Source: Acidimicrobiales bacterium
Lineage (GTDB): Bacteria; Actinomycetota; Acidimicrobiia; Acidimicrobiales; VFJN01
Direction: 5' to 3'
Length of the DNA stretch: 64,000 nt
Assembly: GCA_045807565.1 (NCBI GenBank)
Contig: JBJMHD010000125.1
Span: 22,254 to 86,253 of the forward strand
Positions 7,352 through 50,960 of the stretch are shown here, in pieces. The stretch's first letter is position 1. Each line of letters begins with the position of its first letter. A program made the translations under genes and the position numbers. A model generated the notes under the pieces. That model was given only the letters and a program-made list of their open reading frames with translations, was not told the origin of the DNA and made no database searches.

Positions 7352-7357
7352 CGCCTT

Positions 7358-30683: not shown

Positions 30684-30686
30684 GCC

Positions 30687-33680: not shown

Positions 33681-34460
33681 ATGCCGCGCCTCACCCAGCT
33701 CAGCCGCTCGATCGATGGCAAGGTCGCCGTCGTCACCGGAGCCGCCAGCGGCATGGGACGAGCGACGGCGCACCTGCTGGCCGACGAGGGCGCCGCCGTC
33801 GCGGTGCTCGATCGCACGCCCGACGCCCTGCAGGTCGTGGCCGACGACATCGCCGGCAACGGCGGGAGGGTGGCGGCCATCGACGTGGACCTCTCGGACG
33901 CGGCGGCGACCGACGACGCCATCGCCGCCGCCCGCGACGCGCTGGGACCGATCGACATCCTGATCAACAACGCCGGCGTGAGCCTCGGCGGACCCATCGA
34001 CCAAGACGGGTTCGGCGACGTGTGGGACACCACGCTGGCCATCAACCTCACCGCCTACACGCGAACGATCCGCGCCGCGCTGGAAGACCTCCGGCGGGAC
34101 GCCGCCGGGCGCATCGTGAACGTGGCGTCGACCGAGGGGCTCGGCGCGACAGCTCGGATCTCGCCGTACACCGCCTCGAAGCACGGTGTGGTGGGCCTCA
34201 CCCGGGCCCTGGCCGTGGAGCTCGGCCCCACGGGGGTCACGGTCAACTGCATCTGCCCCGGGCCGATCCGCACCGGGATGACCGAGCTCATCCCCGAGGA
34301 CGCCAAGGTGAAGTTCGCGCGCCGGCGCGTGCCGATGCGGCGCTACGGCGATCCCGAGGAGGTCGCCCAGATCACGCTGTCGCTCGTGCTCCCGGCGGCG
34401 TCGTTCATCACCGGCGCCGTGATCCCCGTGGACGGCGGCCTCACCGTGCAGAACACGTGA
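33681..34460 (+). CDS. short-chain dehydrogenase/reductase (FabG-like)
   Basis: Start reset to ATG 33681. VVTGAASGMGRA, NNAG, YTASKHGVVGLT. Confidence 0.9.
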   Translation: MPRLTQLSRSIDGKVAVVTGAASGMGRATAHLLADEGAAVAVLDRTPDALQVVADDIAGNGGRVAAIDVDLSDAAATDDAIAAARDALGPIDILINNAGVSLGGPIDQDGFGDVWDTTLAINLTAYTRTIRAALEDLRRDAAGRIVNVASTEGLGATARISPYTASKHGVVGLTRALAVELGPTGVTVNCICPGPIRTGMTELIPEDAKVKFARRRVPMRRYGDPEEVAQITLSLVLPAASFITGAVIPVDGGLTVQNT

Positions 34461-35485
34461 CGGTCCGCATCGGGTTCCTGGGCGCGGGCCTGATCGCCGG
34501 CTACCACGGCAAGATGCTCCACCGCTCGGGCACGGACCACGAGATCGCGGCCGTCTACGACATCGACCTGGAGCGCGCTGCGGCGTTCGGGCGCGCGTCG
34601 GGCGCCCAACCCACGGACAGCGAAGAGGCGGTGCTCGACGCCGTCGACGCGGTCTACGTGTGCACCTGGACGAGCGAGCACCCGCGCCTCGTGGCGGCCG
34701 CGGTGGACCGCGGCCTGCCGGTGTTCTGCGAGAAGCCGTTGGCCACCTCTCTCGCCGCCGCTCGTGACATGGCCGACAGGGTCGCGGCCACTGGCGTGGT
34801 GAACCAGGTCGGTCTGGTGCTGCGGAGCAGCCCCGCGTTCCTCGAGCTCAAGCACCAGATCGAGGACCCGCGCAGCGGTCGGATCCAGGCGGCGGTGCTG
34901 CGCGACGACCAGTTCCTGCCCGTGCAGGGGATGTACGGCTCGACCTGGCGGTCGGATCCGGACAAGGCCGGCGCCGGGACGATGCTCGAGCACTCGATCC
35001 ACGACCTGGACGCGCTCGAGTGGCTGCTCGGCCCGGTGGCGTCCCTGAGCGCTCGGTCGAGCACCTTCCACGGCAACCCTGGGATCGAGGACACCGTCGT
35101 CGTGGCGATGGAGCTCGTCGACGGCGCCCAGGTGAGCCTCGCCAGCGTGTGGCACCAGCTGCTCGAGCGGCCGAGCCTGCGGCGGCTCGAGGTCATCTGC
35201 GAGCACGCGTTCTTCACCCTCGAGCACGATGTGACGGGCCCGGTCACGTGGACCCGTCCCGGTGAGCAGGGCTCGGTCGAGGGCGGTGAGCTGTTCAGCG
35301 CGGTGGCGGAGCGGCACGACGGCCGATCGCCCAACCAGGACGCCGGGTTCGTGCACGCCGCCGCGTCGGGGATCCCGGGGCCCCACCCGGACTTCGCCAC
35401 CGCGCTGCGGGCCCACGTGGTGGTTGATGCGGTGTACCGGTCGGCGGCCGACGGCGGCGCGCCGGTGGACGTCAGGCCCGCCTGA
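34457..35485 (+). CDS. Gfo/Idh/MocA family oxidoreductase
   Basis: GTGA overlap with the SDR. IGFLGAGLIAGYH, VFCEKPLA (EKP motif). This is the C-terminal 342 aa of listed ORF 33353..35485. Confidence 0.85.
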   Translation: MTVRIGFLGAGLIAGYHGKMLHRSGTDHEIAAVYDIDLERAAAFGRASGAQPTDSEEAVLDAVDAVYVCTWTSEHPRLVAAAVDRGLPVFCEKPLATSLAAARDMADRVAATGVVNQVGLVLRSSPAFLELKHQIEDPRSGRIQAAVLRDDQFLPVQGMYGSTWRSDPDKAGAGTMLEHSIHDLDALEWLLGPVASLSARSSTFHGNPGIEDTVVVAMELVDGAQVSLASVWHQLLERPSLRRLEVICEHAFFTLEHDVTGPVTWTRPGEQGSVEGGELFSAVAERHDGRSPNQDAGFVHAAASGIPGPHPDFATALRAHVVVDAVYRSAADGGAPVDVRPA

Positions 35486-36128
35486 TCCGTCGTGACAGCC
35501 GGTCGGCGCCGGGATCGTCGAGGCCCGGCAGCTGCGGTTGCAGCGGCACGCCGAGCTTGGCGATCCGATCCATGACCAGGGCCTCGACCTCGGCCCAGCT
35601 CCGGGCGCGCGGACCGGGCAGCTCGCGGTTGTACGGGGCGTCGTACACGATCACGTGGTTGTCGGCGTCTCGCAGCGCGACGACGTTGTGCACGGCATCG
35701 TCCACGTACGTGTGCGCCTCCACCTCGGGCTTGGCGCCGAGGAAGCAGATGTCGCGGTAGGGGATCCCCGTGTCGTCGAGCCAGGCGACCGTGTCGGCCA
35801 CCGCCACCGCATGGCCCCAGTTGACGTAGAGGCGGTGGGTGATGATCCGGATCCAGACGCCGGCGTCCGAGAGGCGCCAGAGGCTCTCGGCCACGCCCGG
35901 CATCGCCGGCATGTGGCGGAACATGCGGTGCTCGAGGACGGCGAGGCGGTGGAGCCGGTCGAACTCCTCGGGACCGGCGATGCCCCACTCGGAGAAGTCC
36001 CAGGACCGGGTGAGGCTCAGCTCCGCGGGGTCGATCCCGCGATCCTCGGCCACCACCTGGCGGAAGGTCTCGGTGTAGTCCCCGCACACGCCGTCGAGGT
36101 CGACGCCGAGGATGAAGCCCTCGCCCAC
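35472..36128 (-). CDS. HAD-superfamily 5'(3')-nucleotidase-like phosphatase
   Basis: 218 aa. LGVDLDGVCGDY (DxDGV nucleophile motif), ITHR, VDDAVHNV. Confidence 0.7.
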   Translation of the reverse strand: MGEGFILGVDLDGVCGDYTETFRQVVAEDRGIDPAELSLTRSWDFSEWGIAGPEEFDRLHRLAVLEHRMFRHMPAMPGVAESLWRLSDAGVWIRIITHRLYVNWGHAVAVADTVAWLDDTGIPYRDICFLGAKPEVEAHTYVDDAVHNVVALRDADNHVIVYDAPYNRELPGPRARSWAEVEALVMDRIAKLGVPLQPQLPGLDDPGADRLSRRIRRA

Positions 36129-37565: not shown

Positions 37566-39290
37566 TCAGCCAGGTGCCTCGTCAGGCGAGGGCCGGTCGC
37601 AGGGCAGGTAGAGCTCGTAGAGGCCGCGTTCGGGGTCGATCGGGTTCCGGCCGAACGACCGGTCGAGGCAGAGCTGCGAGCGCAGCACCTCGTTGGGTGC
37701 GTCCGAGCCAGAACGACGGGAGTCGTTGGGCTCGGTCCAGTCGTCGAAGAGGGTCGACAGGATGACCACGTCGGCGTCGGCGACCTCGTCGGCCAGGCCG
37801 GAGTCGTCGGCGTCCGCCACGCCCGGGTCCATCTCGACGTACTTGGTGCCGGGCACGAGGTCGGGCAGCAGGTGGTAGAGGAACGCCTCGCTGTAGGTGG
37901 TGCGGCTCAGGTCGCCGGGCCCGACGACCAGGCGATCGCCAGGCTCGGTCACCTCGTCCACCCGATCCAGGAGGGCGCGCACGGCGTCGACGGCGTCGTC
38001 GCGCTTGTAGGGGAACTCGCGGCCGTCGTGGCGGATCACCTCCTCGAGGCGGCGCGCGCCGAACGTCTTGGCGGCGACCTCCGCGTAGTTGCGATAGGTG
38101 AAGTGCGGAGCGACGACGACCAGGATGACCAGCACGGCGCCGACGCTCGCGAGGCCGGCCCCCGCGCTGGCGCGCGCCGTGCTGGCGCGTGGAGCCGTGC
38201 CGCGCTCGCGACGGGCCGCCCACGCGCGCCCGAGCTCGACGAACGCGGCCGGCAGCACGGCGAACCCGATGCACCCGACCCAGGCGAGGTGGGCGGAGTC
38301 GGGCCGCTGCATCGCCTGGGGGAACAGGCCGACGCTGAACGCGGCGATGGCGAGGAGGCGGTGGTCGCCGGTGCGGCGGCGGCACAGCCAGCCGGCGACG
38401 AGGAGGAGCACCCCCGTGGCGAGGAGCGCGAAGAACCAGAGCCACAGCTGGCGGGGGCCGCTCGGTGCGGGCAGCGGCCACGGCGGCGGGTCGAACACCC
38501 ACGCGCCCTCGAGGAACCCGTCGAAGTGGTGGGGGGAGGGTGGGATCGGCAGCCGCCGCCCGCCGCGGAGGTCGACGATCGGCTGGACGACGAGCCCTTC
38601 GATCACGTGGCCCGGACCCGCCATCGCGACGTGGACGAGCCAGGGGACGCACCCCGCCGCGAAGCCGAGCAGGGCGCGACGTCGGTTGCGGCTCGACAGC
38701 GGGGGGATCGCCACCACGGCCGCCACGGTGAGGGCCAGCACGAGGTCGGGCCGGTACAGGAGCGCGGCGGCGGCGAGCACGCCGGCGACGACCGGCCGCC
38801 ACGACGCCTCCCTTCCCTCGAGCGACGCGTCGAGGGCGAACGAGAGGGCCCAGGCACCGAGGGCGACGCCGCCGACCCAGGCCATGGCCGCGAGCCCGCT
38901 CGGCGTCATGACCAGCAGCGCCGAGATCACGCCGCCCCCCGCCGCGATCCACGGCCCCCAGGGGCGCAGGAGGCGGTAGACGCCGAACACCACGCCCAGG
39001 TGCTGGAGGTAGCCCACCACCCGCTCGGAGGCCAGGCTCACCCCGGCGACGGCGAACACCGCGGCGAGGACCCACAGGCTGCCGGGCCCGTAGAGGTGGA
39101 GGAAGTCGCGGTTGGGCACCTGCCCGTCGAGGACCATCTCGGGGAACACGAGCATGAACCCCTCCTCCATGGGCGCGCCCTGGGTGATCCACAGCCCGTA
39201 CAGGGGTGGGAAGGTGCTCAGGAGGACCACGAGCGGCGCCACCCACCGGCTGAGGCGGGAGCCGTCCGCCTCGAGGGTGGTGTCGCTCAT
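37566..39290 (-). CDS. polytopic membrane protein with C-terminal soluble domain; putative GT-C glycosyltransferase
   Basis: 574 aa from ATG 39290 (MSDTTLEADG). At least 10 hydrophobic helices and an acidic first loop (PMEEGFMLVFPEMVLDGQVPNRDF). The upstream part of listed ORF 37566..40022 is an artefact. Confidence 0.65.
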   Translation of the reverse strand: MSDTTLEADGSRLSRWVAPLVVLLSTFPPLYGLWITQGAPMEEGFMLVFPEMVLDGQVPNRDFLHLYGPGSLWVLAAVFAVAGVSLASERVVGYLQHLGVVFGVYRLLRPWGPWIAAGGGVISALLVMTPSGLAAMAWVGGVALGAWALSFALDASLEGREASWRPVVAGVLAAAALLYRPDLVLALTVAAVVAIPPLSSRNRRRALLGFAAGCVPWLVHVAMAGPGHVIEGLVVQPIVDLRGGRRLPIPPSPHHFDGFLEGAWVFDPPPWPLPAPSGPRQLWLWFFALLATGVLLLVAGWLCRRRTGDHRLLAIAAFSVGLFPQAMQRPDSAHLAWVGCIGFAVLPAAFVELGRAWAARRERGTAPRASTARASAGAGLASVGAVLVILVVVAPHFTYRNYAEVAAKTFGARRLEEVIRHDGREFPYKRDDAVDAVRALLDRVDEVTEPGDRLVVGPGDLSRTTYSEAFLYHLLPDLVPGTKYVEMDPGVADADDSGLADEVADADVVILSTLFDDWTEPNDSRRSGSDAPNEVLRSQLCLDRSFGRNPIDPERGLYELYLPCDRPSPDEAPG

Positions 39291-39353
39291 CGGCCCCTGA
39301 AGGTACCGAAGGCCGTCCCGGGCGCCGCGCCAGGCCCGGGTAGTGTCCCCTCC

Positions 39354-40301
39354 GTGGGCGACCTCGACGCGCCGACCGTTGCAGCGGTCGATCGCCCGCT
39401 GCGGCCGGCGGGCGGCGCCGCCGCGTACCTCCAGCTGGTCCGTCCGCGCCAGTGGGTGAAGAACCTGCTCGTGCTCGCCGCCCCGGCCGCCGCAGGCGCG
39501 CTGGACGAGTGGCACTACGTGCGCCAGGCGCTGCTCGTGCTCGTGAGCTTCTGCCTCGCCGCCAGCGGGACCTACTGCATCAACGACGCCGCCGATGCCG
39601 AGGCCGACCGACTGCACCCCACCAAGCGCCACCGACCGGTGGCCAACGGCGCCGTCTCGCCGTCGCAAGCGCGCGTGCTCGGCGTCGTGCTCCTGGTGCT
39701 CGGCATGGGCCTCGGGATCGTGGTCGGCCAGTGGGAGGTCTCGGCCGTCACCGCGCTCTACGTCGCCATGACGACGGTGTACACGCTCTGGCTGAAGCAG
39801 GTCGCGGTGATCGACCTCGTGCTCATCGCCTCCTTCTTCGTGCTGCGGGCCGTCGCCGGCGTCGTCGGCACCGACCTGCCCATCTCGGACTGGTACCTCA
39901 TCGTCGCCAGCTTCGGTGCGCTCTTCCTGGTCGCGGGCAAGCGCACCACCGAGCTCCGCGCCCCTGATGCCCTTCGCCACCGTCCCGCGCTCGCGGCGTA
40001 CACCCCGACGTTCCTGCTCCACGTGCGGACGGTCGCCGTCACGGTCACCCTCCTCGCGTACTGCCTGTGGGCCTTCGAGAAGGCCGATGTGGCGAACTCG
40101 AGCGTGCCGTGGTTCGAGCTGTCGATCCTCCCGTTCCTCGTGGGGCTGCTCCGGTACGCCCTCGTCCTGGAGACGGAGGACAGGCGCGGCCCGGAGGAGA
40201 TCATCCTCGGGGACCGGACGCTCCAGGTGGTGGGCCTCTGCTGGGCGCTGCTGTTCGCCGCCGGGGTGTACCTCGGCGATGCCCCGCCCCTCACCTCCTG
40301 A
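39354..40301 (+). CDS. UbiA-family decaprenyl-phosphate phosphoribosyltransferase (Rv3806c-like DPPR synthase)
   Basis: GTG 39354. LVRPRQWVKNLLV, Asp-rich NDAADAEADRLHPTKRHRPVANG matching the Rv3806c-type motif, about 8 TM segments. This is the last 315 aa of artefactual ORF 35538..40301. Confidence 0.85.
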   Translation: MGDLDAPTVAAVDRPLRPAGGAAAYLQLVRPRQWVKNLLVLAAPAAAGALDEWHYVRQALLVLVSFCLAASGTYCINDAADAEADRLHPTKRHRPVANGAVSPSQARVLGVVLLVLGMGLGIVVGQWEVSAVTALYVAMTTVYTLWLKQVAVIDLVLIASFFVLRAVAGVVGTDLPISDWYLIVASFGALFLVAGKRTTELRAPDALRHRPALAAYTPTFLLHVRTVAVTVTLLAYCLWAFEKADVANSSVPWFELSILPFLVGLLRYALVLETEDRRGPEEIILGDRTLQVVGLCWALLFAAGVYLGDAPPLTS

Positions 40302-40363
40302 CGCCGCCGGCCCCGCCGGGCGCGCGGAGGCGGGCGTCCGCCCGTCGCTAGCATCGCCGGGCC

Positions 40364-40666
40364 ATGCTCCCCCTCGAACGTCGCATCGTGCGCACGCTCA
40401 CGACCTCGCCCGACCCCGCGGTCCGAGCCGACGTGGAGGGGTGGGTCGAGCGCTCGCTGGACGGGATGCCCGACGGTCTCCGCCTCGGCGTGGTGCTCGA
40501 GTCGTGCCTCTTCACGGCGTGGGAGGGCCTCCGCCGCCCGGCAGACCTGCACGGGCTCATCTCGTGGCTCGAGGGCAGCCCCATCGGGCTCCTGCAGGCC
40601 TACCCACGGCTGTTCCGGTCGCTGGTCACCTTCGGCGAGCTCGAGCTCGGACCGTCGGTCTCGTGA
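40364..40666 (+). CDS. small hypothetical protein translationally coupled to the GMC oxidoreductase
   Basis: 100 aa with high GC3. Its stop TGA overlaps GTG 40663 of the next gene. No recognisable motif, signal peptide or TM segment. Confidence 0.55.
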   Translation: MLPLERRIVRTLTTSPDPAVRADVEGWVERSLDGMPDGLRLGVVLESCLFTAWEGLRRPADLHGLISWLEGSPIGLLQAYPRLFRSLVTFGELELGPSVS

Positions 40667-42090
40667 GCGGCATCGACACCGAGGTCCTCGTCATCGGCTC
40701 CGGTGCCGGGGGAGCGACCACGGCGCGGGCGCTGGCCGAGGCAGGCCTCGCCGTCCACGTGGTGGAGGAGGGCCCGTGGCTGGAGCCCGGCGCCGTCCCC
40801 GCCTTCAGCCTCGCCGAGATGGACCGCGCCTACCGCCACCGCGGGGCGAGCGCGGCGATGGGCCGGCCACCGATCGCGTACGCCGAAGGGCGGTGCGTCG
40901 GGGGCAGCACCGAGATCAACAGCGGGCTCTGGGCTCGCCTGCCTCGTCCGCTCGTCGACACCTGGCGTGCCGGACTCGGCCTCGAGGACCTCACCGCCGA
41001 GGACCTCGGGAAGGTGGAGGATCGGATCGAGTCGTGGGTGCCCGTGCACCCGCTCCCGGGGGCCGCTCCGCCCTCGTCCGCCGCACTGGTCCGCGGCGCC
41101 GACGCCTTGGGCTGGCGCCACGAGGAGTTCCCGCGCGCCTTCACCTACGACGGCGCCGGTCGCGGCACGAAGCAGTCGATGAGCCAGACGCTCCTCCCGG
41201 AGGCGGTCCGGCTCGGAGCCCACATCCAGCCCGACACCTACGTGTCGGAGCTGCTGCTCGATCGAGGCCGGGCATGGGGGGCGCGCGTGCGCACCACGCA
41301 CCCGGATGGCGTGGAGGAGCAGGAGATCCGCGCCGAGCGCGTGTTCGTCTGCGGCGGAGCGATCCAGACGCCAGCCCTGCTCCAGCGCAGCGGCCTCCGC
41401 CGGCGGCCGATCGGTCGCGGCCTCCGGATGCACCCCACCCTCAAGGTCGCGGCCCAGTTCCCGTCAGCCGTGGACCACGACGAGGTGCCGGTGCACCGCA
41501 TCACCGAGTTCGCCCCTGACCTGGCGATCGGCGGTTCGGCCAGCCGGCGCGGGCAGGTGGGTCTGGCGCTCGCGGACAGCGGCGTCGACGTCCACGAGCT
41601 CGGCGACGCGTGGGACCGCGTGTTCGTGTACTACGCCGCGATCAAGAGCGACCGTGGTGGCCGGGTGCTCGCGATCCCCGGGCTGCGCGCCCCGGTCGTC
41701 ACCTACCCGATCTCGGATGCCGACCTGAGCCGGCTCGCCCGGGGACTGGTGCTCCTCGGCGAAGCCCTCCTCGCCGCGGGCGCCGAAGCGCTCTACCCCT
41801 CGGTGGACGGCGCTCCCGTCGCCACGACCGTCGCCGACCTGGGCGCGTGGTGGGACGCGATCGACCGCCGCCGGGCGAGCCTGATGAGCGTCCACCTCAC
41901 GTCGAGCATCGGCATGAGCCACGATCCCGCACGCACGGGAGCCGACGCCCACGGACGGGTGTGGGGCATCGAGGGCCTGCACGTGAACGACGCGTCGCTC
42001 CTGCCCGACGCCCCCGGCGTGAACCCGCAGGCCGGTGTGATGGCGATCGCGCTGCGGAACGTCGACCACTTCCTCACCACCCGTCGATGA
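40663..42090 (+). CDS. GMC-family FAD-dependent oxidoreductase
   Basis: VLVIGSGAGGATTARALAEAGLAVHVVEEG (FAD beta-alpha-beta). C-terminal HLTSSIGM...DAHGRVWGIEGLHVNDASLLPDAPGVNP (GMC C-terminal signature with catalytic His). Confidence 0.85.
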   Translation: MSGIDTEVLVIGSGAGGATTARALAEAGLAVHVVEEGPWLEPGAVPAFSLAEMDRAYRHRGASAAMGRPPIAYAEGRCVGGSTEINSGLWARLPRPLVDTWRAGLGLEDLTAEDLGKVEDRIESWVPVHPLPGAAPPSSAALVRGADALGWRHEEFPRAFTYDGAGRGTKQSMSQTLLPEAVRLGAHIQPDTYVSELLLDRGRAWGARVRTTHPDGVEEQEIRAERVFVCGGAIQTPALLQRSGLRRRPIGRGLRMHPTLKVAAQFPSAVDHDEVPVHRITEFAPDLAIGGSASRRGQVGLALADSGVDVHELGDAWDRVFVYYAAIKSDRGGRVLAIPGLRAPVVTYPISDADLSRLARGLVLLGEALLAAGAEALYPSVDGAPVATTVADLGAWWDAIDRRRASLMSVHLTSSIGMSHDPARTGADAHGRVWGIEGLHVNDASLLPDAPGVNPQAGVMAIALRNVDHFLTTRR

Positions 42091-43127
42091 TCGACCACGA
42101 TCGCACCGCTCCCGCGACCATGGTCGTCACCGGCGCGGCGGGGTGGCTCGGCCAGAACCTGGTGCGCGCCGTCGCCCCGGAGCGCGAGCGCGTCCGCTGC
42201 CTGGTGCGCACGCCGGAGGAGGCGGCGCTGCTCGCGGTCGCGCACCCGAGCGTCGATCCGATCGTCGGCGACGTGCGCGACCCGCACACCCTCGACCGCC
42301 TCCTGGACGGGGTCGGCGACGCCACCGTCGTCCACGCCGCCGCCGTGATCCACCCCACCGCGGGCATCCGCGAGCTCTACGACGTGAACGTGGGTGGCAC
42401 GCAGCTCCTCGTGGACCGCGTGCGGCGCAGCGGTGCGGGCCGGCTGGTCCACGTGTCGTCGAACTCGCCCTTCGGTGCGAACCCCGGACCGGACCACCGC
42501 TTCACCGAGGACAGCCCGATGCACCCGTACCTGGGCTACGGCCGCTCGAAGGCCGAGGCCGAGGCGATCGTCATGGCCGCCCACACCCGGGGCGACCTCG
42601 AGGCCGTGGTGCTGCGACCACCCTGGTTCTACGGCCCACACCAGCCCGAGCGGCAGACCCGCTGGCTGCGGGCCGTGCGCCGCAACCGCTTCCCGGTCGT
42701 CGGCGACGGCACCAACCGCCGGTCGATGGTCTTCACCGGCAACCTCGTGCACGCCGTGCTCCGAGCCGAGCTGGCGGACGGCGCGTCAGGGCGCGCCTAC
42801 TGGATCGCCGACGGGCCTCCGCCCACGATGCACGAGGTGCTCGACACCGTCCGTGCCGCCTTCGCCGCCGAGGGCCTCCCGCCCGCGGGGGGCCCGCGAC
42901 CCCGGGCCCCCCGTGCCGTGGGCGTGCTGGCCGAGCGGGCCGACACGCTGCTGCAAGGGCGTGGTCGGTACAGCCAGGTCCTCCACGTGCTCGGGGAGCT
43001 GAAGGACACCATCGCGTGCGACACCGCTCGTGCCGAGGCGGAGCTGGGCTACCGGCCACCCACCACGCTGCTCGACGGCATGCGCGAGAGCATCCGATGG
43101 TGCGTGGAGCGGGGCATCGCGCTGTGA
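42087..43127 (+). CDS. NAD-dependent epimerase/dehydratase (extended SDR) 1
   Basis: ATGA overlap. VVTGAAGWLGQNLV, YGRSKAEAE (YxxxK). 346 aa. Confidence 0.85.
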   Translation: MIDHDRTAPATMVVTGAAGWLGQNLVRAVAPERERVRCLVRTPEEAALLAVAHPSVDPIVGDVRDPHTLDRLLDGVGDATVVHAAAVIHPTAGIRELYDVNVGGTQLLVDRVRRSGAGRLVHVSSNSPFGANPGPDHRFTEDSPMHPYLGYGRSKAEAEAIVMAAHTRGDLEAVVLRPPWFYGPHQPERQTRWLRAVRRNRFPVVGDGTNRRSMVFTGNLVHAVLRAELADGASGRAYWIADGPPPTMHEVLDTVRAAFAAEGLPPAGGPRPRAPRAVGVLAERADTLLQGRGRYSQVLHVLGELKDTIACDTARAEAELGYRPPTTLLDGMRESIRWCVERGIAL

Positions 43128-44155
43128 GCCGGCTCCTGGTCACCGGCGGGAGCGGGTACTTCGGTTCGGTGCTCGTCGACCAGGCCCTGGCGCGCGGCGA
43201 CGAGGTGCGCATCCTCGACCTCAACCAGCCAGAGCCCCGACCGGGCGCGGCGCTGGACGTCGTGGTGGGCGACGTGCGTGACGCGCGCCTCGTGGCACGC
43301 GCGTGCGAGGGGATCGACGTCGTGCACCACAACGTCGCCCAGGTGCCGCTCGCCCGCGATCGTGAGCTGTTCTGGACCGTGAACGTCGTCGGCACCGCGA
43401 ACGTGCTCCTGGCGGCACGCGACGCCCACGTCGGCAAGGTCGTCACCACGTCCTCGAGCGCGGTGTACGGCATCCCCGAGCGCAACCCCGTGGACGAGAC
43501 GAGCCCTCGCCGCCCCCTGGAGGCGTACGGACGGGCGAAGCTCGAGGCCGAGGCGCTCTGCGCGGAGGCCGTCGCGTCCGGTCTCGACGTCACCGTGATC
43601 CGTCCGCGCACGATCCTGGGGCACGGCCGGCTGGGGATCATGGTGATCCTGTTCGAGCTGGTGGCGGAAGGGGCCGCGGTGCCCGTGCTCGACGGCGGCG
43701 CCAACCGGTACCAGCTCGTCCACGCCGAAGACCTCGCCGACGCCTGCCTGCGCGCGGGTGAGCGCGCCGGCGGGCTCGCCTACAACATCGGCGCGACCGA
43801 CTTCGGCACGATGCGCGACACCCTCGAGGCGCTCTGCCGGCACGCCGGGACGGGCGCACGGGTCCGGTCGGTGCCGTCGGCGCCCGCCCGCCTCGCCATG
43901 CGGGGTGCCACCGCGGTGGGGATGGCGCCCTTCGCTCCCTACCACTGGCTCCTCTACGGCGAGTCGCTCTGGTTCGACACCACGGCGGCGCGCCGCGAGC
44001 TCGGGTGGGCGCCGGTGCACAGCAACGCCGACATGGTGATCGAGTCCTACGAGTGGTGGATGGCCCACCGCCACGAGCTCGACGGCCCCGGGCGCTCGCA
44101 CCACCAGTCGCCGGTGCGGTTCGGCCTGCTCGAGGTGCTCAAGCGGCTCCGCTGA
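43124..44155 (+). CDS. NAD-dependent epimerase/dehydratase (extended SDR) 2
   Basis: GTGA overlap. LVTGGSGYFGSVLV, YGRAKLEAE. 343 aa. Confidence 0.85.
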   Translation: MSRLLVTGGSGYFGSVLVDQALARGDEVRILDLNQPEPRPGAALDVVVGDVRDARLVARACEGIDVVHHNVAQVPLARDRELFWTVNVVGTANVLLAARDAHVGKVVTTSSSAVYGIPERNPVDETSPRRPLEAYGRAKLEAEALCAEAVASGLDVTVIRPRTILGHGRLGIMVILFELVAEGAAVPVLDGGANRYQLVHAEDLADACLRAGERAGGLAYNIGATDFGTMRDTLEALCRHAGTGARVRSVPSAPARLAMRGATAVGMAPFAPYHWLLYGESLWFDTTAARRELGWAPVHSNADMVIESYEWWMAHRHELDGPGRSHHQSPVRFGLLEVLKRLR

Positions 44156-44198
44156 GCGACCCGGGACCTCCAGGGGGGCACTTGTATGCTCCGACGCC

Positions 44199-46109
44199 GT
44201 GCCGCAGCCCTCGGTCGACGTCTCGGATCGACCGTCAGCGCTCCCATCGGCCGAACCCGAGGCCGCTGACGCGGACGCCCGCCGGCGGCGCCTCGGACCG
44301 TGGTGGCTCATCCCGCTCGCGACGGCGGGGCTCTGCGTCCCCCTGATCGTGGCCCTCGCCGGGCTTCGCCGGCCGGTGTGGACCCCGGTGCTGGACCTGG
44401 CCATGACCGAGCTGCGCGTGCGCGACGTGGGCGGCGCGCACACGCCGCTCATCGGCCTGCCCGGTCGCATCGGGCCCTCGTTGCAGCAGCAGGGGAGCCA
44501 CCCGGGGCCGCTGAGCTTCTACGCGCTGGCGCCCACCTACCGCGCCCTCGGGTCCACCGCATGGGCCCTCCAGGTGGGCACCGTGGTCATCCACGCGGTG
44601 GCGATCGGCACCTCCCTGTGGCTCGGACGACGCCGAGCGGGTCTCCTCGGCCTCGCCGCGACGGCAGCGGGCCTCGCGCTGCTCCTCGCCGCCTACGGCG
44701 GGGCGGCCCTCACCGAGCCGTGGAACCCCTACCTCCCGCTCCTCTGCTGGGTCGTCACCCTCCTCGCGACCTGGTCGGTCCTCGAGGACGATCGGGCGGC
44801 GCTCATCCCGCTCGTGGCGGCCGGGTCGTTCTGCGCGCAGACCCACGTGCCCTACCTCGGCCTGGCGCTCGGGCTCGGCGCGCTGGCGGTGGGAAGCGTG
44901 CTGCTCCGGGCACGCGCCCAACCGGGAGACCGCGCGTCGATGCTCCGGTGGCTGGGGGCGGCGCTGGCCCTCGGCGTCGTCCTGTGGCTCCCACCGACGG
45001 TCGACCAGATCCGGCACGACCCGGGCAACTACCGAACCCTCCTCGACCACTTCTCCGATCCTCCGGAGGAGCCCGCCGGCCTGCGCACGGGCGCGCGCGC
45101 CGCCCTCGAGCACCTCGACGTCGTCCACCTCGCGCGGTCGGCTGGGCAGGAGACGGGCTGGCTCGTCACCAGCGCTGACGGCAACACGCCGAGCGCGGCG
45201 CGCGGGGTCGTGCTGCTGGGCGCGTGGGCGGTGGCGGCGGTCCTCTGCCTGCGCCAACGCCGAGCGCTGCTTCCGCTGCACGCGGTGGCTGGAGCGTCGT
45301 TCGTCCTGATGGTGCTCGCGCTCAGCCGCATCTTCGGGACCCTCTGGTACTACCTGTCGCTGTGGGGCTGGGCGATCGGGCTGCTGCTGCTGGCGGCCGC
45401 GCTGGCCACCCTGGGATCAGTGCGGTCGTCGCGCGAACCCATCGGCACGCGGCAGCGATGGGCGCGGATCACCACCATCGCGCTGGCAGGCCTCGCTCTG
45501 GCGGTGACCGTGCGCTTCACCGTCACCGCCTCGGACAGCCCCCACGGCGACGCCCGGGTGGCCGCGCAGCTGGCGCTGGTCGTCGACGACACCGCCGCCG
45601 CGATCGACGACGGAGCAGGCGCCGCCACCCCGGGCGACGGGAGGTACGTGGTGAGCTGGGCGGACGCGTTCCACATCGGCTCCCAGGGCTACGGCATGCT
45701 CAGCGAGCTCGAGCGCCGGGGCATCGACGCCTACCTCGAGCCGCTCTTCCACGTGCCGGCCACCGAGCACCGCGCCCTGGACCCCGCCGACGCCACGGCG
45801 CGCGTGGTCCTTGCCACCGGCTCGTACATCGACGAGTACCGAGCCCGAGAGGGTGCGGTCGAGGTCGCCTACGGCGACCTGCGGTCCCCCGAGGAGCGGG
45901 CCGAGGAGGCGCGCCTGCGAGCCGAGCTCGACCAGGACCTCCGTGCCGCGGGCCTCGACGAGGTCGCCGACCAGCTGGACACGAACGTCTTCGGCGCTGC
46001 CCTCGACCCGCGCCTCGACCCTGAGGCGAAGCGAGGCATCGAGCGGCTGCTGGAGATCGGCGGGCCCCTCGCCGTGTTCGTGGTGCCTCCGGACGCCACC
46101 GAGGCATGA
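44199..46109 (+). CDS. large polytopic membrane protein, putative GT-C glycosyl/arabinosyltransferase (paralogue A)
   Basis: 636 aa. At least 11 TM segments plus a ~190-aa C-terminal soluble domain. Motifs ELRVRDV, HPGPL and GSFCAQTHVPYL are shared with the next gene. Confidence 0.7.
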   Translation: MPQPSVDVSDRPSALPSAEPEAADADARRRRLGPWWLIPLATAGLCVPLIVALAGLRRPVWTPVLDLAMTELRVRDVGGAHTPLIGLPGRIGPSLQQQGSHPGPLSFYALAPTYRALGSTAWALQVGTVVIHAVAIGTSLWLGRRRAGLLGLAATAAGLALLLAAYGGAALTEPWNPYLPLLCWVVTLLATWSVLEDDRAALIPLVAAGSFCAQTHVPYLGLALGLGALAVGSVLLRARAQPGDRASMLRWLGAALALGVVLWLPPTVDQIRHDPGNYRTLLDHFSDPPEEPAGLRTGARAALEHLDVVHLARSAGQETGWLVTSADGNTPSAARGVVLLGAWAVAAVLCLRQRRALLPLHAVAGASFVLMVLALSRIFGTLWYYLSLWGWAIGLLLLAAALATLGSVRSSREPIGTRQRWARITTIALAGLALAVTVRFTVTASDSPHGDARVAAQLALVVDDTAAAIDDGAGAATPGDGRYVVSWADAFHIGSQGYGMLSELERRGIDAYLEPLFHVPATEHRALDPADATARVVLATGSYIDEYRAREGAVEVAYGDLRSPEERAEEARLRAELDQDLRAAGLDEVADQLDTNVFGAALDPRLDPEAKRGIERLLEIGGPLAVFVVPPDATEA

Positions 46110-47878
46110 TCGACGGCTCTGGTGACGGCTCTGGTGACGAGCCGCTCGACGAGGAGGACGCCCTCCTCCGGTGGGGGTGGAAGGTGGTCGCCCTCGCCAC
46201 GAGCCTCGTCATCGTCGCCTCCGCGGTCCGCGGTGTCCGGCGCGGCTACGAGCTGGTCGGGGACAACGCCCTGATCGAGCTCCGAGCCCGGGACGTCCTC
46301 ACCGAGCACCATCCGTTCCTCGGCACCTGGTCGTCGGCGTCGATCAGCTCCAGCGTCGACGTGAACCACCCGGGCCCGCTGCTGTTCGACCTCCTCGCCG
46401 CACCAGTCCGCCTGCTCGGCGGCGCCACAGGGACCGCGATCACGGTCGCCGTGCTCGCCGTCGTCGTGGTGTGGACGGTCGGCTTCGTGACGTCGAGGGC
46501 AGCGGGCCCCGCCGCCGCGCTGGTCGCGCAGGTCGTCACCGCCGGGATCGCGTGGACCGTCGGCAGCGAGCTGCTCTACGACGCCTGGCAGCCGAACGTG
46601 CTCGTCCTGCCCTTCTGGCTGCTGCTGTGCACCGTGTGGGCCGTCGTCGTGGACCGGGTCGAGCTGCTGCCCGTTGCCGTGCTGGTGGGGTCGTTCTGCA
46701 TGCAGACCCACCTGGCCTACCTCTTCCTCGTCCCGATCCTGCTCGCCTTCGCCCTCGGCGTGGTCGTGCTGCGCCGGCGGCCGCGTGGATCCGGTCGCTT
46801 CGACGACCTGTGGGCGCCGCTCCGCACCACCGCGATCGTCGGCGTGGTGCTCTGGGCGCAGCCGGTGTGGGAGCAGCTCTTCGGTCCGGGGCGCGGCAAC
46901 CTCGGTCGGCTGCTCACGGCGGGCACGGGCGGTTCGTCGTCGAGCGAGGCGACCGCGCACACCGGCGTGTCGCTCGGGGTGCGGCTGTTCAGCTCCGTGC
47001 TCGCCCAGCCGCCGTGGTGGCTGCGGCCAGGCTTCGACACGTCGATCCCGCCCTCGACCTGGGTCGACACGCCCGGCGGCCGGGTGCTCTCGGCCCCCGG
47101 GCTGACGGGTGCACGGCCGGCCGTCGCCGCGCTGGGAGCGCTCGTGGGGGTGGTGGTGGTCGGCTGGCTCGTCGCCCGCCGCCGCCCCGCGAGCAGGGCC
47201 GTGGCGCAGGGCTACTGGGTGCTCGCGCTGTGCGCGGCGGTGGCGCTCGTGACCCTCGTGATCACACCCATCGACGTGATCGGCCTGACCCCGCACAAGA
47301 TCCGCTACCTCTGGATCATCGGAGCGTTCGCGACGTTCCTCCTCCTGCTGACGATCCTGAGCCTCCTGCGCCCGAAAGCTCGCCGCGTCGCGCTCGTGGC
47401 GGTCACCGCCCTCGGGCTGCTCGCCGTCGTCGCGACCGTGCCGTTCCACGCGTCGGCGGGCGGACCGGTCGAGCTGCGGGCGTCGTACGAGTCGGTCGGT
47501 GACCTCCGATCTCAGCTGGCCGAGTACTTCGCGCACGACCGCTCGGCGCCCGACGCCGTGCGGTTCGACGCCAGCGGCATCGGCTTCGCCGAGCCGTACA
47601 CGTCACCGGTGATGGCCCAGCTGGTGGAGAGCGGCGTCGACCTGGCCGTGGACGACGTCGCCCTCTCCCGGCAGCTGGGTCCCGACCGCCTCGCCGATCG
47701 GAGCGACGCCGGCCGTCCCCTCGTGTACGTGCGCGCCGGGCCGGCGGCGTTGGAGGACGTGCCGGGGGTCGAGCGCATCGCCTTCTACGACGGGGACCGG
47801 TCGCCGTTCAACCGGCTCGACGTCACCGACCGAGCCGTCGCCGTGTTCCTCAGCCGCGACGGCGAGGTGCACGGGTGA
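46106..47878 (+). CDS. large polytopic membrane protein, putative GT-C glycosyl/arabinosyltransferase (paralogue B)
   Basis: 590 aa. ATGA overlap. ELRARDV, NHPGPL, GSFCMQTHLAYL. Same architecture as 44199..46109. Confidence 0.7.
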   Translation: MIDGSGDGSGDEPLDEEDALLRWGWKVVALATSLVIVASAVRGVRRGYELVGDNALIELRARDVLTEHHPFLGTWSSASISSSVDVNHPGPLLFDLLAAPVRLLGGATGTAITVAVLAVVVVWTVGFVTSRAAGPAAALVAQVVTAGIAWTVGSELLYDAWQPNVLVLPFWLLLCTVWAVVVDRVELLPVAVLVGSFCMQTHLAYLFLVPILLAFALGVVVLRRRPRGSGRFDDLWAPLRTTAIVGVVLWAQPVWEQLFGPGRGNLGRLLTAGTGGSSSSEATAHTGVSLGVRLFSSVLAQPPWWLRPGFDTSIPPSTWVDTPGGRVLSAPGLTGARPAVAALGALVGVVVVGWLVARRRPASRAVAQGYWVLALCAAVALVTLVITPIDVIGLTPHKIRYLWIIGAFATFLLLLTILSLLRPKARRVALVAVTALGLLAVVATVPFHASAGGPVELRASYESVGDLRSQLAEYFAHDRSAPDAVRFDASGIGFAEPYTSPVMAQLVESGVDLAVDDVALSRQLGPDRLADRSDAGRPLVYVRAGPAALEDVPGVERIAFYDGDRSPFNRLDVTDRAVAVFLSRDGEVHG

Positions 47879-49017
47879 CGGCCCTCGTCGGCCCGAGCGT
47901 CGACATCGTCGTGCCCGTCCACGACGAGGAGGACATCCTCGAGGCGAGCGTCGTCCGCCTGCGGGCGCACCTCGAGGACGCCTTCCCGTTCGTCTGGCAC
48001 ATCGTCATCGCCGACAACGCCTCCACCGACGCCACCCCTGCCATCGCGGCGCGCCTCGCCGCCGCCGACGAGCGCATCCGCCACCTGCGCCTGCCCGAGA
48101 AGGGCAGAGGGCGCGCCCTGCGGGCGGCCTGGTCCGCGTCGGACGCCGACGTCGTCGCCTACACCGACGTCGACCTGTCGACCGGGCTCACCGGGCTGCT
48201 GCCCCTCGTGGCGCCGCTCGTGTCGGGCCACTCGGACCTGGCGATCGGCTCCCGGCTGAGCTCGAGCTCGGTGGTGGCACGCGGGCCGAAGCGAGAGCTC
48301 ATCTCGCGCTGCTACAACCTCTTGCTGCGGGTCGTGTTCGCGGTGCGGTTCCGCGATGCCCAGTGCGGCTTCAAGGCGGGTCGGGCCGACGTCGTCCGCC
48401 GGCTCCTCCCAGCCGTGGAGGACGAGGCCTGGTTCTTCGACACCGAGCTGCTCCTGCTGGCCGAGTACAACGGCCTGCGGGTCCACGAGGTGCCCGTCGA
48501 CTGGATCGACGACCCCGACAGCCGCGTGGACGTGCGGTCCACCGCGCTGGCCGACCTGCGCGGCGTCCGCCGCATGGCCTGGCGGTTCGCGCGCGGCAAG
48601 GGCGGCGTGGACCTCGGTGAGCACGAGCGGTCGCCCCTCGCCGACGACTTCGGGCGCCAGACGGTCACCTACGCCAGCATCGGGCTCGTCTCCACGGCCA
48701 TCAGCCTGGTGCTGTTCCTGCTCCTGCGCGACCAGGTCGGCGCGGTGTGGGCCAACGTCATCGCGTTCACGTCCACCGCCCTCGGCAACAGCTGGGCCCA
48801 CAGTCGGTGGACCTTCCGGCGGCGCACCCAGGAGGACCGGCGGTGGCGGCTCGCCACGAGCCTCGCCGTGTTCGCGGTGTCGCTCCTCGGGACGTCCCTC
48901 GCGCTGGCTGCCGTCCGGGGGAACCCGACCGCCGAGCTCGTGGTCCTCGCCGTCAGCTGGACGGCGGCCGCGGTCTTCCGCTTCGTGGTGCTGCGGACCT
49001 GGGTGTACCGCCGGTGA
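47875..49017 (+). CDS. GT2 polyprenyl-phosphate glycosyltransferase fused to a C-terminal GtrA-like domain
   Basis: GTGA overlap. IVVPVHDEE, ADNASTDAT, YTDVDLS, DAQCGFK, FFDTELL. The C-terminal 4-TM region has NSWAHSRWTF (GtrA family pattern). Confidence 0.85.
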   Translation: MTALVGPSVDIVVPVHDEEDILEASVVRLRAHLEDAFPFVWHIVIADNASTDATPAIAARLAAADERIRHLRLPEKGRGRALRAAWSASDADVVAYTDVDLSTGLTGLLPLVAPLVSGHSDLAIGSRLSSSSVVARGPKRELISRCYNLLLRVVFAVRFRDAQCGFKAGRADVVRRLLPAVEDEAWFFDTELLLLAEYNGLRVHEVPVDWIDDPDSRVDVRSTALADLRGVRRMAWRFARGKGGVDLGEHERSPLADDFGRQTVTYASIGLVSTAISLVLFLLLRDQVGAVWANVIAFTSTALGNSWAHSRWTFRRRTQEDRRWRLATSLAVFAVSLLGTSLALAAVRGNPTAELVVLAVSWTAAAVFRFVVLRTWVYRR

Positions 49018-50954
49018 CAGCGGTCGGCCCGCCGGCTCAGGACGTGCGACTGGGCACCCGCGGCGTGGTGAACGCCGTCACGGTCGCGGCCGTCGCCCTG
49101 TTCTGGCTCGTGTCGACCTCGTGGCACCCGTGGGACCTGTTCGACCGGGGCGGGTTCAGCGCCGACTTCTACGACGAGCAGGCACGCGCCCTGCTCCACG
49201 GCCACCTCGCCGTCGATCCGGCCGTGTCGAGCATCGAAGGCTTCGTGATCGACGGCCGGTCCTACCTGTACTACGGGCCCTTCCTGGCGATCGCGCGGCT
49301 GCCCTTCCAGCTCTTGGGCGACGTCTCCACGGGCCGGCTCGTGCGCGCGTCCATGCTGCTCGCCGTCGTGGTGCTGTGCCGATGGACCGCCCGGATCGCG
49401 CAGGCGGGGCGGCGGGCGGTGGCCCCTGGCGCCGCGAGCGCCCCGGACGTCCGCACCGAGCGATGGACCGTGGGGATCTTCACCGCCGCGGTCGCCTTCT
49501 CGCCCGCCTTCACCGCCGCCGGCTGGATCACCGTCTACAACGAGACCGAGCTGTGGGCGTTCGCGCTCGCCGTCGTCGGCGTCACGCTGCTCCTCGAGTG
49601 GGCGGCCACGGGGTTCAGCGCCACGCGCCCGCTCGTCGGGGCGATCTTCGCGGCGGGCGGAGCCACCCTCACGCGCGCTCCGATCGGCATGGGGGTGGCG
49701 CTCGCGATCGGCGCGTGCGGCCTGGTGCTGGCGTGGCGACGCGGCCCGCAGCGCGGCCGGACGGCATGGCTCGCGATGGCCGGTGGCCTGGCTCCCGTCG
49801 CGGCCCATGCCGCCGTCAACGTCGCCAAGTTCGGCACGCTCCTCTCGGTCCCGGGGACGCGGCAGCAGCTCTCGCTCGACGATCCGAGCCGGGCCGCCTG
49901 GTTCGCCGGCAACGGCGACAGCTTCTTCTCGACGCGCTTCCTCTCGACCACCGTCGTCCACTACCTCCGGCCCGACGCGATCCGCTTCGAGCGTCTGGTC
50001 CCGGGCATCCGGTTCGGTCCGCTGGCCGAGGAACGAGGCACGTACCCGCTGCTCAGCAACACCCCGGCATCGTCGCTCACCGTGACGGCGACCCTCCTGC
50101 TGCTCCTCGCCGTGGTCGGAGCGGTGTGGGTGGTCCGCCAGCGGGCGAGGACGTGGGGGTTGGTGGCGCTGTGCACGGGCGTCGGCGCGCTCCCGACCCT
50201 CCTGATCGGCTTCATCGCCAACCGGTACCTCATCGACCTGCTCCCACCGCTCGTCGTGCTGGGCGCGACCGGCGTGTGGGCGGTGAGCCTCCGCTCGTGG
50301 AGCGGCGCGGCCCGACGGGCGATCCGCATCGGTGGGGTCCTGCTCGTGGTGTGGGGGATCTGGGTGAACGCGTCCCTGGCCACCTGGTCGCTCGATCAGC
50401 GGTCACCGGGGTTCACCGACCTGCGCTACCGCGTCGACGGGTGGCTGTTCCCCGACCCCTCGCCGGGCCTGGTGCGCGTCGCTCCGGGCGATCCCGCGGC
50501 GCGCGAGGGCCTCACCGGGATCGAGGTGGACCCCGACCTCGGCTGCACGGGCGTCTACACCGCCGAGCAGGGACGCTGGCAGCCCATCGAGCGCGGGGCG
50601 GCGCGGGACCTCTCGACCACGGTCACGCCCGACGGCGACCGAACCGTCCTCGCCCACGGAACCACCTGGCGGCTGGACCTCGTCCTCAGCGACGGCGACG
50701 CTGCCCGCATCGTCGTCACGGACCGCGACGGGCGGGAGGTGAGCGACCAGCTGCTCCCCAGGTGGGAGCGCCTGGCTCCGGGCGGCTCGGTGCCCGCTCG
50801 GGTCATCGTCGACCCGGTGGTCGGAGAGTTCGCGGTGATCGTGGGCCGCGGATCGCTGTACCTGCCTGGGAGCGTGGTGTCCACCAGCCCCATCGAGACC
50901 TCGGGCCCGGCGGTCACCAGCGCGCTGTGCGAGCGCCTCCGTGACCGGCTCTGA
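49014..50954 (+). CDS. GT-C-type membrane glycosyltransferase (PMT/ArnT-like) with C-terminal soluble domain
   Basis: GTG 49014 overlaps the upstream TGA. First-loop motif GGFSADFYDEQARALLHGHL (DE motif), then multiple TM segments. 646 aa. Confidence 0.7.
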   Translation: MTAVGPPAQDVRLGTRGVVNAVTVAAVALFWLVSTSWHPWDLFDRGGFSADFYDEQARALLHGHLAVDPAVSSIEGFVIDGRSYLYYGPFLAIARLPFQLLGDVSTGRLVRASMLLAVVVLCRWTARIAQAGRRAVAPGAASAPDVRTERWTVGIFTAAVAFSPAFTAAGWITVYNETELWAFALAVVGVTLLLEWAATGFSATRPLVGAIFAAGGATLTRAPIGMGVALAIGACGLVLAWRRGPQRGRTAWLAMAGGLAPVAAHAAVNVAKFGTLLSVPGTRQQLSLDDPSRAAWFAGNGDSFFSTRFLSTTVVHYLRPDAIRFERLVPGIRFGPLAEERGTYPLLSNTPASSLTVTATLLLLLAVVGAVWVVRQRARTWGLVALCTGVGALPTLLIGFIANRYLIDLLPPLVVLGATGVWAVSLRSWSGAARRAIRIGGVLLVVWGIWVNASLATWSLDQRSPGFTDLRYRVDGWLFPDPSPGLVRVAPGDPAAREGLTGIEVDPDLGCTGVYTAEQGRWQPIERGAARDLSTTVTPDGDRTVLAHGTTWRLDLVLSDGDAARIVVTDRDGREVSDQLLPRWERLAPGGSVPARVIVDPVVGEFAVIVGRGSLYLPGSVVSTSPIETSGPAVTSALCERLRDRL

Positions 50955-50960
50955 GCGACC

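Follow-up and report, generated by a model that had tools for sequence, protein, structure and literature searches.

A GMC flavoprotein and two extended short-chain dehydrogenases linked to a polyprenyl-phosphate phosphoribosyltransferase: a candidate module for remodelling lipid-linked pentofuranoses

Lipid-linked pentofuranose donors underlie the mycobacterial arabinan, a target of ethambutol, benzothiazinones and nitroimidazoles, as well as a growing list of surface glycans. To our knowledge, only two conversions of the ribose donor are known, one by DprE1/DprE2 and the other by a single GalE-like short-chain dehydrogenase/reductase (SDR). We analysed a locus that may represent a further conversion, found in a stretch of 64,000 nucleotides from an Acidimicrobiales bacterium (contig JBJMHD010000125.1, positions 22,254 to 86,253), hereafter the window, with a G+C content of about 73%. 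The locus comprises five genes, coding for a UbiA-family protein (UbiA), a small open reading frame (ORF) product of 100 residues (ORF100), a flavin adenine dinucleotide (FAD) oxidoreductase of the GMC family and two extended SDRs (SDR1 and SDR2); the GMC enzyme and the two SDRs are called below the trio.

DprE1/DprE2 of Mycobacterium and Corynebacterium resemble the trio in several respects. Both sets come after a UbiA-type phosphoribosyltransferase, combine a flavin oxidase with nicotinamide-dependent SDR activity, are cytoplasmic without signal peptides, cluster with glycosyltransferases of the GT-C type including AftD homologues, and adjoin UbiA proteins fused to a HAD domain (HAD-UbiA). 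The trio differs from DprE1 by its GMC fold (PF00732/PF05199), which replaces the VAO/FAD_binding_4 fold, and from DprE2 by two extended SDRs of about 345 aa in place of one classical SDR of about 250 aa, with an extra domain or subunit of about 100 aa. Taking as DprE1 a protein of the VAO-type FAD_binding_4 fold scoring at least 500 bits on NF053785, the operon flavoprotein, having a GMC fold, is thus not a DprE1; nor are SDR1 and SDR2, as extended SDRs of 346 and 343 aa, DprE2 proteins, taken as classical SDRs of about 250 aa scoring at least 250 bits on NF053786. The trio is not homologous to DprE1/DprE2, and coexists with them in some clusters.

The second point of reference is the three-component pentofuranose addition described by Kelly et al. 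(PNAS 2024, PMC11127046), in which the synthase PPPRS ORF15, a flippase and a GT-C enzyme of family GT136 are completed by auxiliary epimerases; the auxiliaries characterised so far are either DprE1/E2 or ORF13, a single GalE-like SDR that converts ribose to xylose. As in these systems, our module associates a UbiA-type synthase (HAD-fused in the verrucomicrobial and rhizobial versions) with adjoining accessory redox enzymes, to which an SMR flippase and a large membrane transferase are added in the rhizobial version. Unlike them, the window has a synthase without HAD domain, and it resembles a polymer-building actinobacterial envelope locus (AftD, and a LytR-CpsA-Psr (LCP) ligase upstream) more than an O-antigen side-chain system. 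The accession of CCGE531 is among the six candidate systems of Kelly et al., who call it 'elaborate', with several epimerases; a GMC flavoprotein is mentioned neither in the text nor in the supplement of that paper (PMC11127046).

All five genes lie on the plus strand: UbiA at 39354-40301 (315 aa, predicted polyprenyl-phosphate 5-phosphoribosyltransferase of the DPPRS/Rv3806c type, without fused HAD phosphatase domain), ORF100 at 40364-40666 (a small helical protein), the GMC oxidoreductase at 40663-42090 (475 aa, cytoplasmic, without signal peptide), SDR1 at 42087-43127 and the GalE-like SDR2 at 43124-44155. Gene calling combined a third-position GC frame plot, ORF calls and a simple coding-score gene caller. 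Start and stop codons overlap at the three junctions between ORF100, GMC, SDR1 and SDR2 (GTGA at 40663, ATGA at 42087 and GTGA at 43124), so that these four genes are translationally chained, and a scan of positions 39000-51200 found no promoter or terminator. Chance does not account for the arrangement, since many independent assemblies share it, with proteins that are 58-73% identical. An earlier note on this DNA had described an Rv3806c-type UbiA with its characteristic motif, a 100-aa ORF, a GMC enzyme and two extended SDRs of about 345 aa, the chaining of the last four genes and an AftD homologue some 9 kb away. The junctions as read here, the profile and motif matches given below and the position of the AftD homologue, 8.8 kb downstream of the trio, bear out this description.

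UbiA scored 326.7 bits on the NCBIfam model NF008978 (decaprenyl-phosphate phosphoribosyltransferase), above the cut-off of 207, and stayed under the cut-off on two sister models, NF008976 and NF008977. Its alignment with 8j8j, a mycobacterial enzyme of known structure, covers the full length (E-value 1e-59, residues 18-307 versus 10-301), including the NDxxDxExDRxHPxKRxRP motif (NDAADAEADRLHPTKRHRPVANG versus NDVRDVEADREHPTKRFRPIAAG). These matches place UbiA in the DPPRS-type family, and it is predicted to transfer 5-phosphoribose from phosphoribosyl pyrophosphate (PRPP) to polyprenyl phosphate. Its nearest match, 97% identical, lies on the contig L087, and ORF100 and GMC genes adjoin the UbiA gene in every homologue checked that is 60% identical or more.

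The GMC protein matches PF00732 (111.3 bits) and PF05199 (63.3 bits), both above the gathering scores, and no NCBIfam model at or above cut-off. An exact-sequence look-up returned no record; the nearest match is a metagenomic protein of 93% identity. None of 60 homologues departs from the GxGxxG motif or from His411 and Asn454, which by their position we take to be the GMC catalytic pair, in which a His or Asn partner stands about 43 residues downstream of the catalytic His. By sequence, the best solved relatives are the bacterial pyranose and C-glycoside oxidases 9fl2, 8qve and 7dve. Pyranose 2-oxidases and C-glycoside 3-oxidases (9fl2, 8qve, 7dve, 7qfd) share the fold and the His-Asn pair and oxidise sugars at a secondary hydroxyl, that of C2 or C3; they differ from our protein by an identity of 17-19%, by acting on soluble sugars or glycosides and by having no ORF100-like domain, partner SDRs or linkage to UbiA. 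An AlphaFold2 model of the GMC protein (predicted local distance difference test score 85.8, predicted template-modelling score 0.88) has only GMC enzymes as Foldseek neighbours, at 15-21% identity and TM-scores up to 0.79. We tried to read the substrate from these neighbours, which proved uninformative because their specificities are mixed (fructose dehydrogenase, choline oxidase, C-glycoside oxidases, cholesterol oxidase) and the GMC protein is roughly as far from one as from another.

An exhaustive profile search (E-value of at most 1e-30) placed the GMC protein in a clade of 1555 clusters at 50% identity, many members of which are about 600 aa long and carry an N-terminal extension of 125-165 aa. 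ORF100 itself has no match in Pfam or NCBIfam. A hidden Markov model (HMM) built from 66 ORF100 homologues and searched against a database of 150 proteins matched these N-terminal extensions with E-values from 9.5e-10 to 1.8e-5 (P0261, 9.5e-10; P0292, 8.7e-8; P0260, 9.5e-7); the HMM also matched a 125-aa ORF upstream of the GMC gene of Sinorhizobium fredii NGR234 (7.5e-9). On account of these matches ORF100 can be regarded as a detached domain or subunit of the flavoenzyme, and it is probably a subunit or membrane tether. Fusions also exist between GMC and SDR1, in P0251 (858 aa, its SDR1 part at 44% identity), P0323 and P0362, and P0346 is a GMC protein fused to a more divergent extended SDR. 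Because GMC-SDR1 and ORF100-like-GMC fusions both occur, the GMC protein, the SDRs and ORF100 are considered to work together, and ORF100-GMC-SDR1-SDR2 is an ancient module.

SDR1 and SDR2 match PF01370 with 123.7 and 132 bits, respectively, and are paralogues of 32% identity. They form distinct orthologue groups in Actinomycetota, Verrucomicrobiota, Cyanobacteriota and Pseudomonadota: SDR1 orthologues occur at 39-45% identity in Verrucomicrobiota, cyanobacteria and NGR234, and SDR2 orthologues, separate from those of SDR1, at 42-55% identity in three other phyla. The TGxxGxxG motif, the catalytic Ser and YxxxK are kept in the orthologues of both from the four phyla. SDR1 has the signature VSSNSPFG...YGRSK...RPPWFYGPxQPxRQT and SDR2 the signature TTSSSAVYG...YGRAK, followed in the latter by a conserved, basic and amphipathic C-terminal tail. 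The best Protein Data Bank matches of SDR1 are dTDP-glucose 4,6-dehydratases, an activity that we ruled out since the Asp-Glu pair is missing; the corresponding position reads VSSNSPFG in SDR1 and TTSSSAVYG in SDR2, so that neither protein has the dehydratase residues. The best solved relative of SDR2 is a GDP-sugar 4-epimerase, 8rdg (PMC12171764). We propose that SDR1 is an NAD(P)H-dependent ketoreductase acting as partner of the GMC enzyme, and SDR2 a second reductase or an epimerase of the module.

Relatives of the GMC protein were found in 471 species-level genomes. Nearly all of the best 80 of the 471 are labelled Acidimicrobiia, Acidimicrobiales, Microthrixaceae or Actinomycetota/Actinomycetes, and the 80 contain no GMC protein above 67% identity; three of them are labelled, probably wrongly, as members of unrelated groups (two Bifidobacterium-type, one Burkholderiales). 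We compared 82 non-redundant Acidimicrobiia loci. The SDR pair accompanies GMC in 68 of them and ORF100 does so in 66.

In Verrucomicrobiota and on rhizobial symbiosis plasmids the module is found next to a phosphoribosyltransferase of another architecture. In metagenome-assembled genomes of Pedosphaera and Opitutus the gene order is HAD-UbiA, GMC with its N-terminal domain, SDR1 and SDR2, one unrelated gene separating the two SDRs in Pedosphaera; the UbiA protein of Opitutus is of the same type of about 480 aa. The HAD-UbiA protein scores 669 bits on NF006088 (cut-off 351) and has the architecture of Citrobacter youngae ORF15, a characterised bifunctional polyprenyl phosphoribose synthase/phosphatase (PMC11127046). 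When 83 loci (80 from a metagenome scan plus L088-L090) were grouped by the identity of their GMC protein to that of the window, UbiA or HAD-UbiA adjoined the trio in 22 of the 26 metagenomic loci of the most distant group. The module also occurs on nine rhizobial symbiosis plasmids, among them pNGR234a (next to nodS), pMLa and pRCCGE531b. As an SMR flippase gene and a 658-aa membrane protein join HAD-UbiA in these rhizobial clusters, they constitute a complete three-component system. All five window components are present in the NGR234 cluster (NGR_RS31055-31085), with identities to the window of 35% for the UbiA core, 38% for GMC, 40% for SDR1 and 49% for SDR2; the pNGR234a cluster differs from the window by its HAD-fused UbiA and by its organisation in two divergent units, which also encode an SMR transporter and only one membrane protein, of 658 aa. 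In NGR234, HAD-UbiA is NGR_RS31055, GMC is NGR_RS31070 and the SDRs are NGR_RS31085 and NGR_RS31060. We take this cluster to be the ORFs y4nG-y4nM, of which y4nJ is presumably the one annotated as a GMC-type oxidoreductase. Our literature search on the NGR234 y4n genes found no published function, and none of our searches found biochemistry on the rhizobial homologue. Taken together, the cross-phylum gene orders support a functional tie between the trio and the phosphoribosyltransferase.

On pMLa of Mesorhizobium japonicum MAFF 303099 (record 142-7933) the module looks truncated: SDR2, SMR, an ORF100-like gene and GMC are kept, and an IS110 transposase occupies the position of SDR1 and HAD-UbiA in NGR234.

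With moderate confidence, we read the locus as a pathway for a lipid-linked pentofuranose donor containing a previously uncharacterised sugar-remodelling module. UbiA would move 5-phosphoribose from PRPP onto polyprenyl phosphate, and the 5-phosphate would be taken off by a phosphatase, corresponding in other phyla to the HAD domain fused to UbiA. At the cytoplasmic face of the membrane, GMC and ORF100 would then turn one of the hydroxyls of the lipid-linked ribofuranose into a carbonyl by oxidation, and SDR1 and SDR2, using NAD(P)H, would reduce this intermediate or epimerise it, yielding a different polyprenyl-phospho-pentofuranose. This product would be flipped and used by GT-C-type transferases (the AftD homologue, PMT_2 and the membrane proteins of 574-636 aa) for a cell-envelope glycan. 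The coupling of the genes is established; the substrate, regiochemistry and product we infer. That oxidation and reduction are performed by proteins of unrelated folds, as the earlier note had suggested, is well supported by the fusions, the cross-phylum synteny and the position shared with DprE1/DprE2.

Several observations weigh against this pathway. UbiA adjoins the trio in only 15 of the 82 Acidimicrobiia loci, all from the lineage closest to the window, and in about 10 the four-gene cassette lies away from GT-C genes, beside lipid-metabolism and housekeeping genes. No phosphatase or flippase could be securely identified in the window, where UbiA lacks a HAD domain. The sole GtrA-like domain that could serve as flippase in the cluster belongs to a GT2-GtrA fusion at 47875-49017 (PF00535 79 bits, PF04138 44.8 bits). 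Concerning the phosphatase, an NT5C-type HAD-superfamily 5'-nucleotidase is encoded at 35472-36128 on the minus strand (PF06941, 117 bits), and is also present in the near-identical contig L087 and otherwise in two related loci only. Tested as a detached phosphoribose phosphatase, it does not resemble the HAD domain of HAD-UbiA significantly, sharing with it the DxDG motif alone, and it is a weak candidate for the 5-phosphatase step. The GT-C status of the 586/590-aa membrane proteins of the cluster is a prediction. The GMC protein has no close characterised relative, and with solved relatives at only 15-21% identity its substrate and regiochemistry cannot be read from the protein. Finally, one SDR is enough for the epimerisation at C3 in Citrobacter (PMC11127046), which leaves the use of three enzymes unexplained.

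Genuine DprE1 and DprE2 were searched for with M. tuberculosis DprE1, a query identical to PDB 4kw5, and with a DprE2 query that matched the curated DprE2 genes in the locus L095 described below. A tblastn search of the window and 86 related loci (1.5 Mb) gave two weak matches only and no DprE1 or DprE2. Within the window, the only VAO-type protein, of 437 aa at 16759-18072, was rejected as DprE1, scoring 254 bits as GlcD and 44.7 bits on NF053785 (cut-off 500), and the classical SDRs at 734-1450 and 33681-34460 were rejected as DprE2 because they match generic FabG-like models only.

A different picture emerged from a sister lineage whose GMC proteins are 46-55% identical to that of the window, and which is presumably part of the Actinomycetota given its high G+C content and its AftD. 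In four of its loci (L093, L095, L112 and L113) an intact trio shares one cluster with canonical genes including DprE1/DprE2, the DprE-type matches of L112 and L113 running into contig ends. In L095, DprE1 scores 565 bits on NF053785 (cut-off 500) and DprE2 317 bits on NF053786 (cut-off 250); L093 also encodes a DPPRS (NF008978, 345 bits). The canonical genes have the order UbiA, small ORF, DprE1, DprE2 at positions 16893-20692 of L093 and 11863-14569 of L095, a few kb from the trio. The small ORF, of 156-187 aa and without NCBIfam match, could be a candidate phosphatase of the Rv3807c type. In other well-flanked loci of the lineage AftD comes directly after SDR2 (12 of 37 loci), with no DprE1/E2 within 10 kb. 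As DprE1/DprE2 share its cluster in this lineage, a trio making arabinofuranose would be redundant, which points to a different or additional product. This coexistence makes another pentofuranose, formed instead of D-arabinofuranose or besides it, the more likely product; C3 could be inverted, for example, or C2 and C3 together. A different donor, or else further processing of the DprE product by the trio, is the more economical reading.

From this pathway a wider proposal follows, which we put forward tentatively and regard as possible without being probable: the module would be a third widespread route diversifying lipid-linked pentofuranoses, yielding a donor new to bacterial glycans, such as polyprenyl-phospho-D-lyxofuranose, arising by inversion of C2 and C3 together, or a keto- or otherwise modified pentofuranose, for the envelopes of Acidimicrobiia, Verrucomicrobiota and symbiotic rhizobia. 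This would be a third conversion, by a set of enzymes of unrelated folds that occurs in at least four phyla. The module would also be a candidate to explain in part the AftD-dependent envelope polymer of the abundant and poorly studied Acidimicrobiia, including Microthrix-type wastewater bacteria. It would likewise provide a candidate function for long-unannotated genes beside the nod genes of NGR234 and other rhizobia. The rhizobia that carry it are genetically tractable and their glycan chemistry is already at hand.

The earlier note had gone further, proposing a non-orthologous replacement of DprE1/DprE2, and this is the rival that survives best. In its strict form, the GMC enzyme would oxidise C2 of the lipid-linked ribose and an extended SDR would reduce the 2-keto intermediate, giving polyprenyl-phospho-D-arabinofuranose for AftD. 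The searches above are consistent with it inasmuch as no DprE1/E2 was found in the window or in the 1.5 Mb of related loci, and the best solved GMC relatives at the sequence level oxidise C2 or C3 of sugars. So is the genomic position of the trio: on plasmids of Cereibacter sphaeroides, Rhizobium etli and Burkholderia stagnalis, HAD-UbiA is followed by homologues of DprE1 (36-39% identity, near full length) and DprE2 (32-35%), with a GtrA gene intervening after HAD-UbiA in two of the three and one further gene in Cereibacter, and the trio elsewhere stands in that same place. Among PLSDB plasmids, 95 carry HAD-UbiA, 64 a DprE1 homologue and nine the GMC type; none of the nine is among the 60 listed of the 64 DprE1-bearing plasmids, which speaks for the trio as an alternative accessory module with the same substrate, the lipid-linked ribose. 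AftD and AftB_C-like proteins in the clusters, with AftD directly after SDR2 in the sister loci just mentioned, also speak for replacement. If arabinofuranose were the product after all, the module would offer a way to the product of DprE1 that is insensitive to benzothiazinones.

Yet single clusters of the sister lineage contain an intact trio together with DprE1, DprE2 and DPPRS, and both SDRs are universally kept though one reductase would do. The two SDRs, conserved as separate orthologue groups in four phyla, are no optional alternatives. Nor does AftD by itself specify arabinose: such GT-C enzymes can be promiscuous for pentoses (PMC11127046), and AftD homologues are known across twelve actinobacterial orders with donors that are unknown (bioRxiv 10.1101/2019.12.22.885152). 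On balance we consider strict replacement unlikely. Literature searches for a GMC enzyme in the epimerisation of decaprenylphosphoryl-ribose, and for Acidimicrobiia together with DprE1 or DPPRS, returned nothing relevant.

On the Burkholderia stagnalis plasmid (record 518060-524299) the DprE-type system is more elaborate, comprising HAD-UbiA, DprE1-like and DprE2-like proteins, a 327-aa SDR, an amine-oxidase-like NAD(P)/FAD oxidoreductase and GtrA.

The trio could also act on something other than the donor pentose, which the same pathway requires, namely the polyprenol carrier (an alcohol oxidation and then reductions, as when polyprenol is converted to dolichol), another envelope lipid or a nucleotide sugar. 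Some cassettes have surroundings in keeping with this. Five Acidimicrobiia loci (L013, L020, L033, L050 and L057) contain the four-gene cassette with no GT-C or UbiA gene within 10 kb; its neighbours there are a 798-aa NAD_binding_4+HAD protein resembling fatty-acyl reductases, a PlsC-type acyltransferase, glutamate synthase, a zinc alcohol dehydrogenase and a TetR regulator. Likewise, a Lyngbya-like cyanobacterial locus has no UbiA within 10 kb of the trio. The SDRs have sub-threshold matches to the lipid-acting OleD, the sterol enzyme SdmB, 3-beta-HSD and HpnA, and among the structural neighbours of the GMC protein are cholesterol oxidase and oxidases of primary alcohols, for instance choline oxidase. 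We nonetheless hold a non-donor substrate to be quite improbable, since none of the lipid-acting SDR matches comes near the cut-off of its family, SDR2 has a sugar 4-epimerase as its best solved relative, the gene repeatedly found in tight linkage encodes a phosphoribosyltransferase and not a polyprenyl synthase, and the DprE1/E2 or epimerase-free systems found beside the same HAD-UbiA need no modification of the carrier.

In most Acidimicrobiia loci the trio lies amid GT-C-type genes, as it does in the window. Divergent from UbiA, a polytopic membrane protein of 574 aa is encoded at 37566-39290 on the minus strand; it has no Pfam match and about ten hydrophobic segments, and is a putative lipid-sugar-dependent glycosyltransferase. 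Downstream of SDR2 follow, on the plus strand, two paralogous polytopic membrane proteins of about 590 aa (44349-46109 and 46106-47878), both putative GT-C enzymes that would use the lipid-linked donor, then the GT2-GtrA fusion, of the polyprenyl-phosphate sugar synthase type, and a membrane protein of 636 aa (49044-50954). The paralogous pair matches PF10131 weakly, a DLAxTELRVRD motif is conserved after the first helix of this 586/590-aa family, and the family profile gave no meaningful match against PDB sequences. A group on the opposite strand comprises a GT2, a PMT_2 GT-C protein (51686-52960, PF13231), the AftD homologue (52957-57201, 1414 aa, PF11847 301 bits plus CBM_AftD) and a GT4 (57288-58490, PF00534). 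The predicted GT-C candidates for a lipid-linked pentose in the window are the AftD homologue and two PMT_2 proteins. Next to GMC, the 586/590-aa membrane family is found in 55 of the 82 Acidimicrobiia loci (105 copies), the 574-aa family in 40 and GT2 in 33; within 10 kb, PMT_2 occurs in 38, GT4 in 34 and AftD in 30.

Further upstream on the minus strand are an AT3 acyltransferase with an SGNH domain (21278-23185) and the LCP ligase (23324-24535). As such proteins are typical of glycopolymer acylation and attachment to peptidoglycan, the product of the cluster may be a wall-linked polymer. A set that we take to be conservon-like, by analogy with actinobacterial cvn operons, lies just upstream of the glycan cluster at 27506-31268, and consists of a NIT-HAMP histidine kinase (27506-29857), a Roadblock/LC7 protein (29854-30309), an 86-aa ORF (30423-30683) and a small ATP_bind_1 GTPase (30687-31268). 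The FabG-like classical SDR at 33681-34460 overlaps a GFO/IDH/MocA oxidoreductase gene (34457-35485), the product of which has sub-threshold matches to inositol 2-dehydrogenase and sugar 3-dehydrogenases; a tblastn survey of the related loci detected this SDR in one and the GFO protein in none. Finally, a 489-aa flavoprotein of the amine-oxidase/NAD_binding_8 type is encoded at 60101-61570 on the minus strand. In 21 of the 82 loci the trio has a homologue of this flavoprotein, at 60-81% identity, no more than 10 kb away, and the amine-oxidase-like protein of the Burkholderia stagnalis plasmid is distantly similar to it (24% identity, E-value 2.6e-12).

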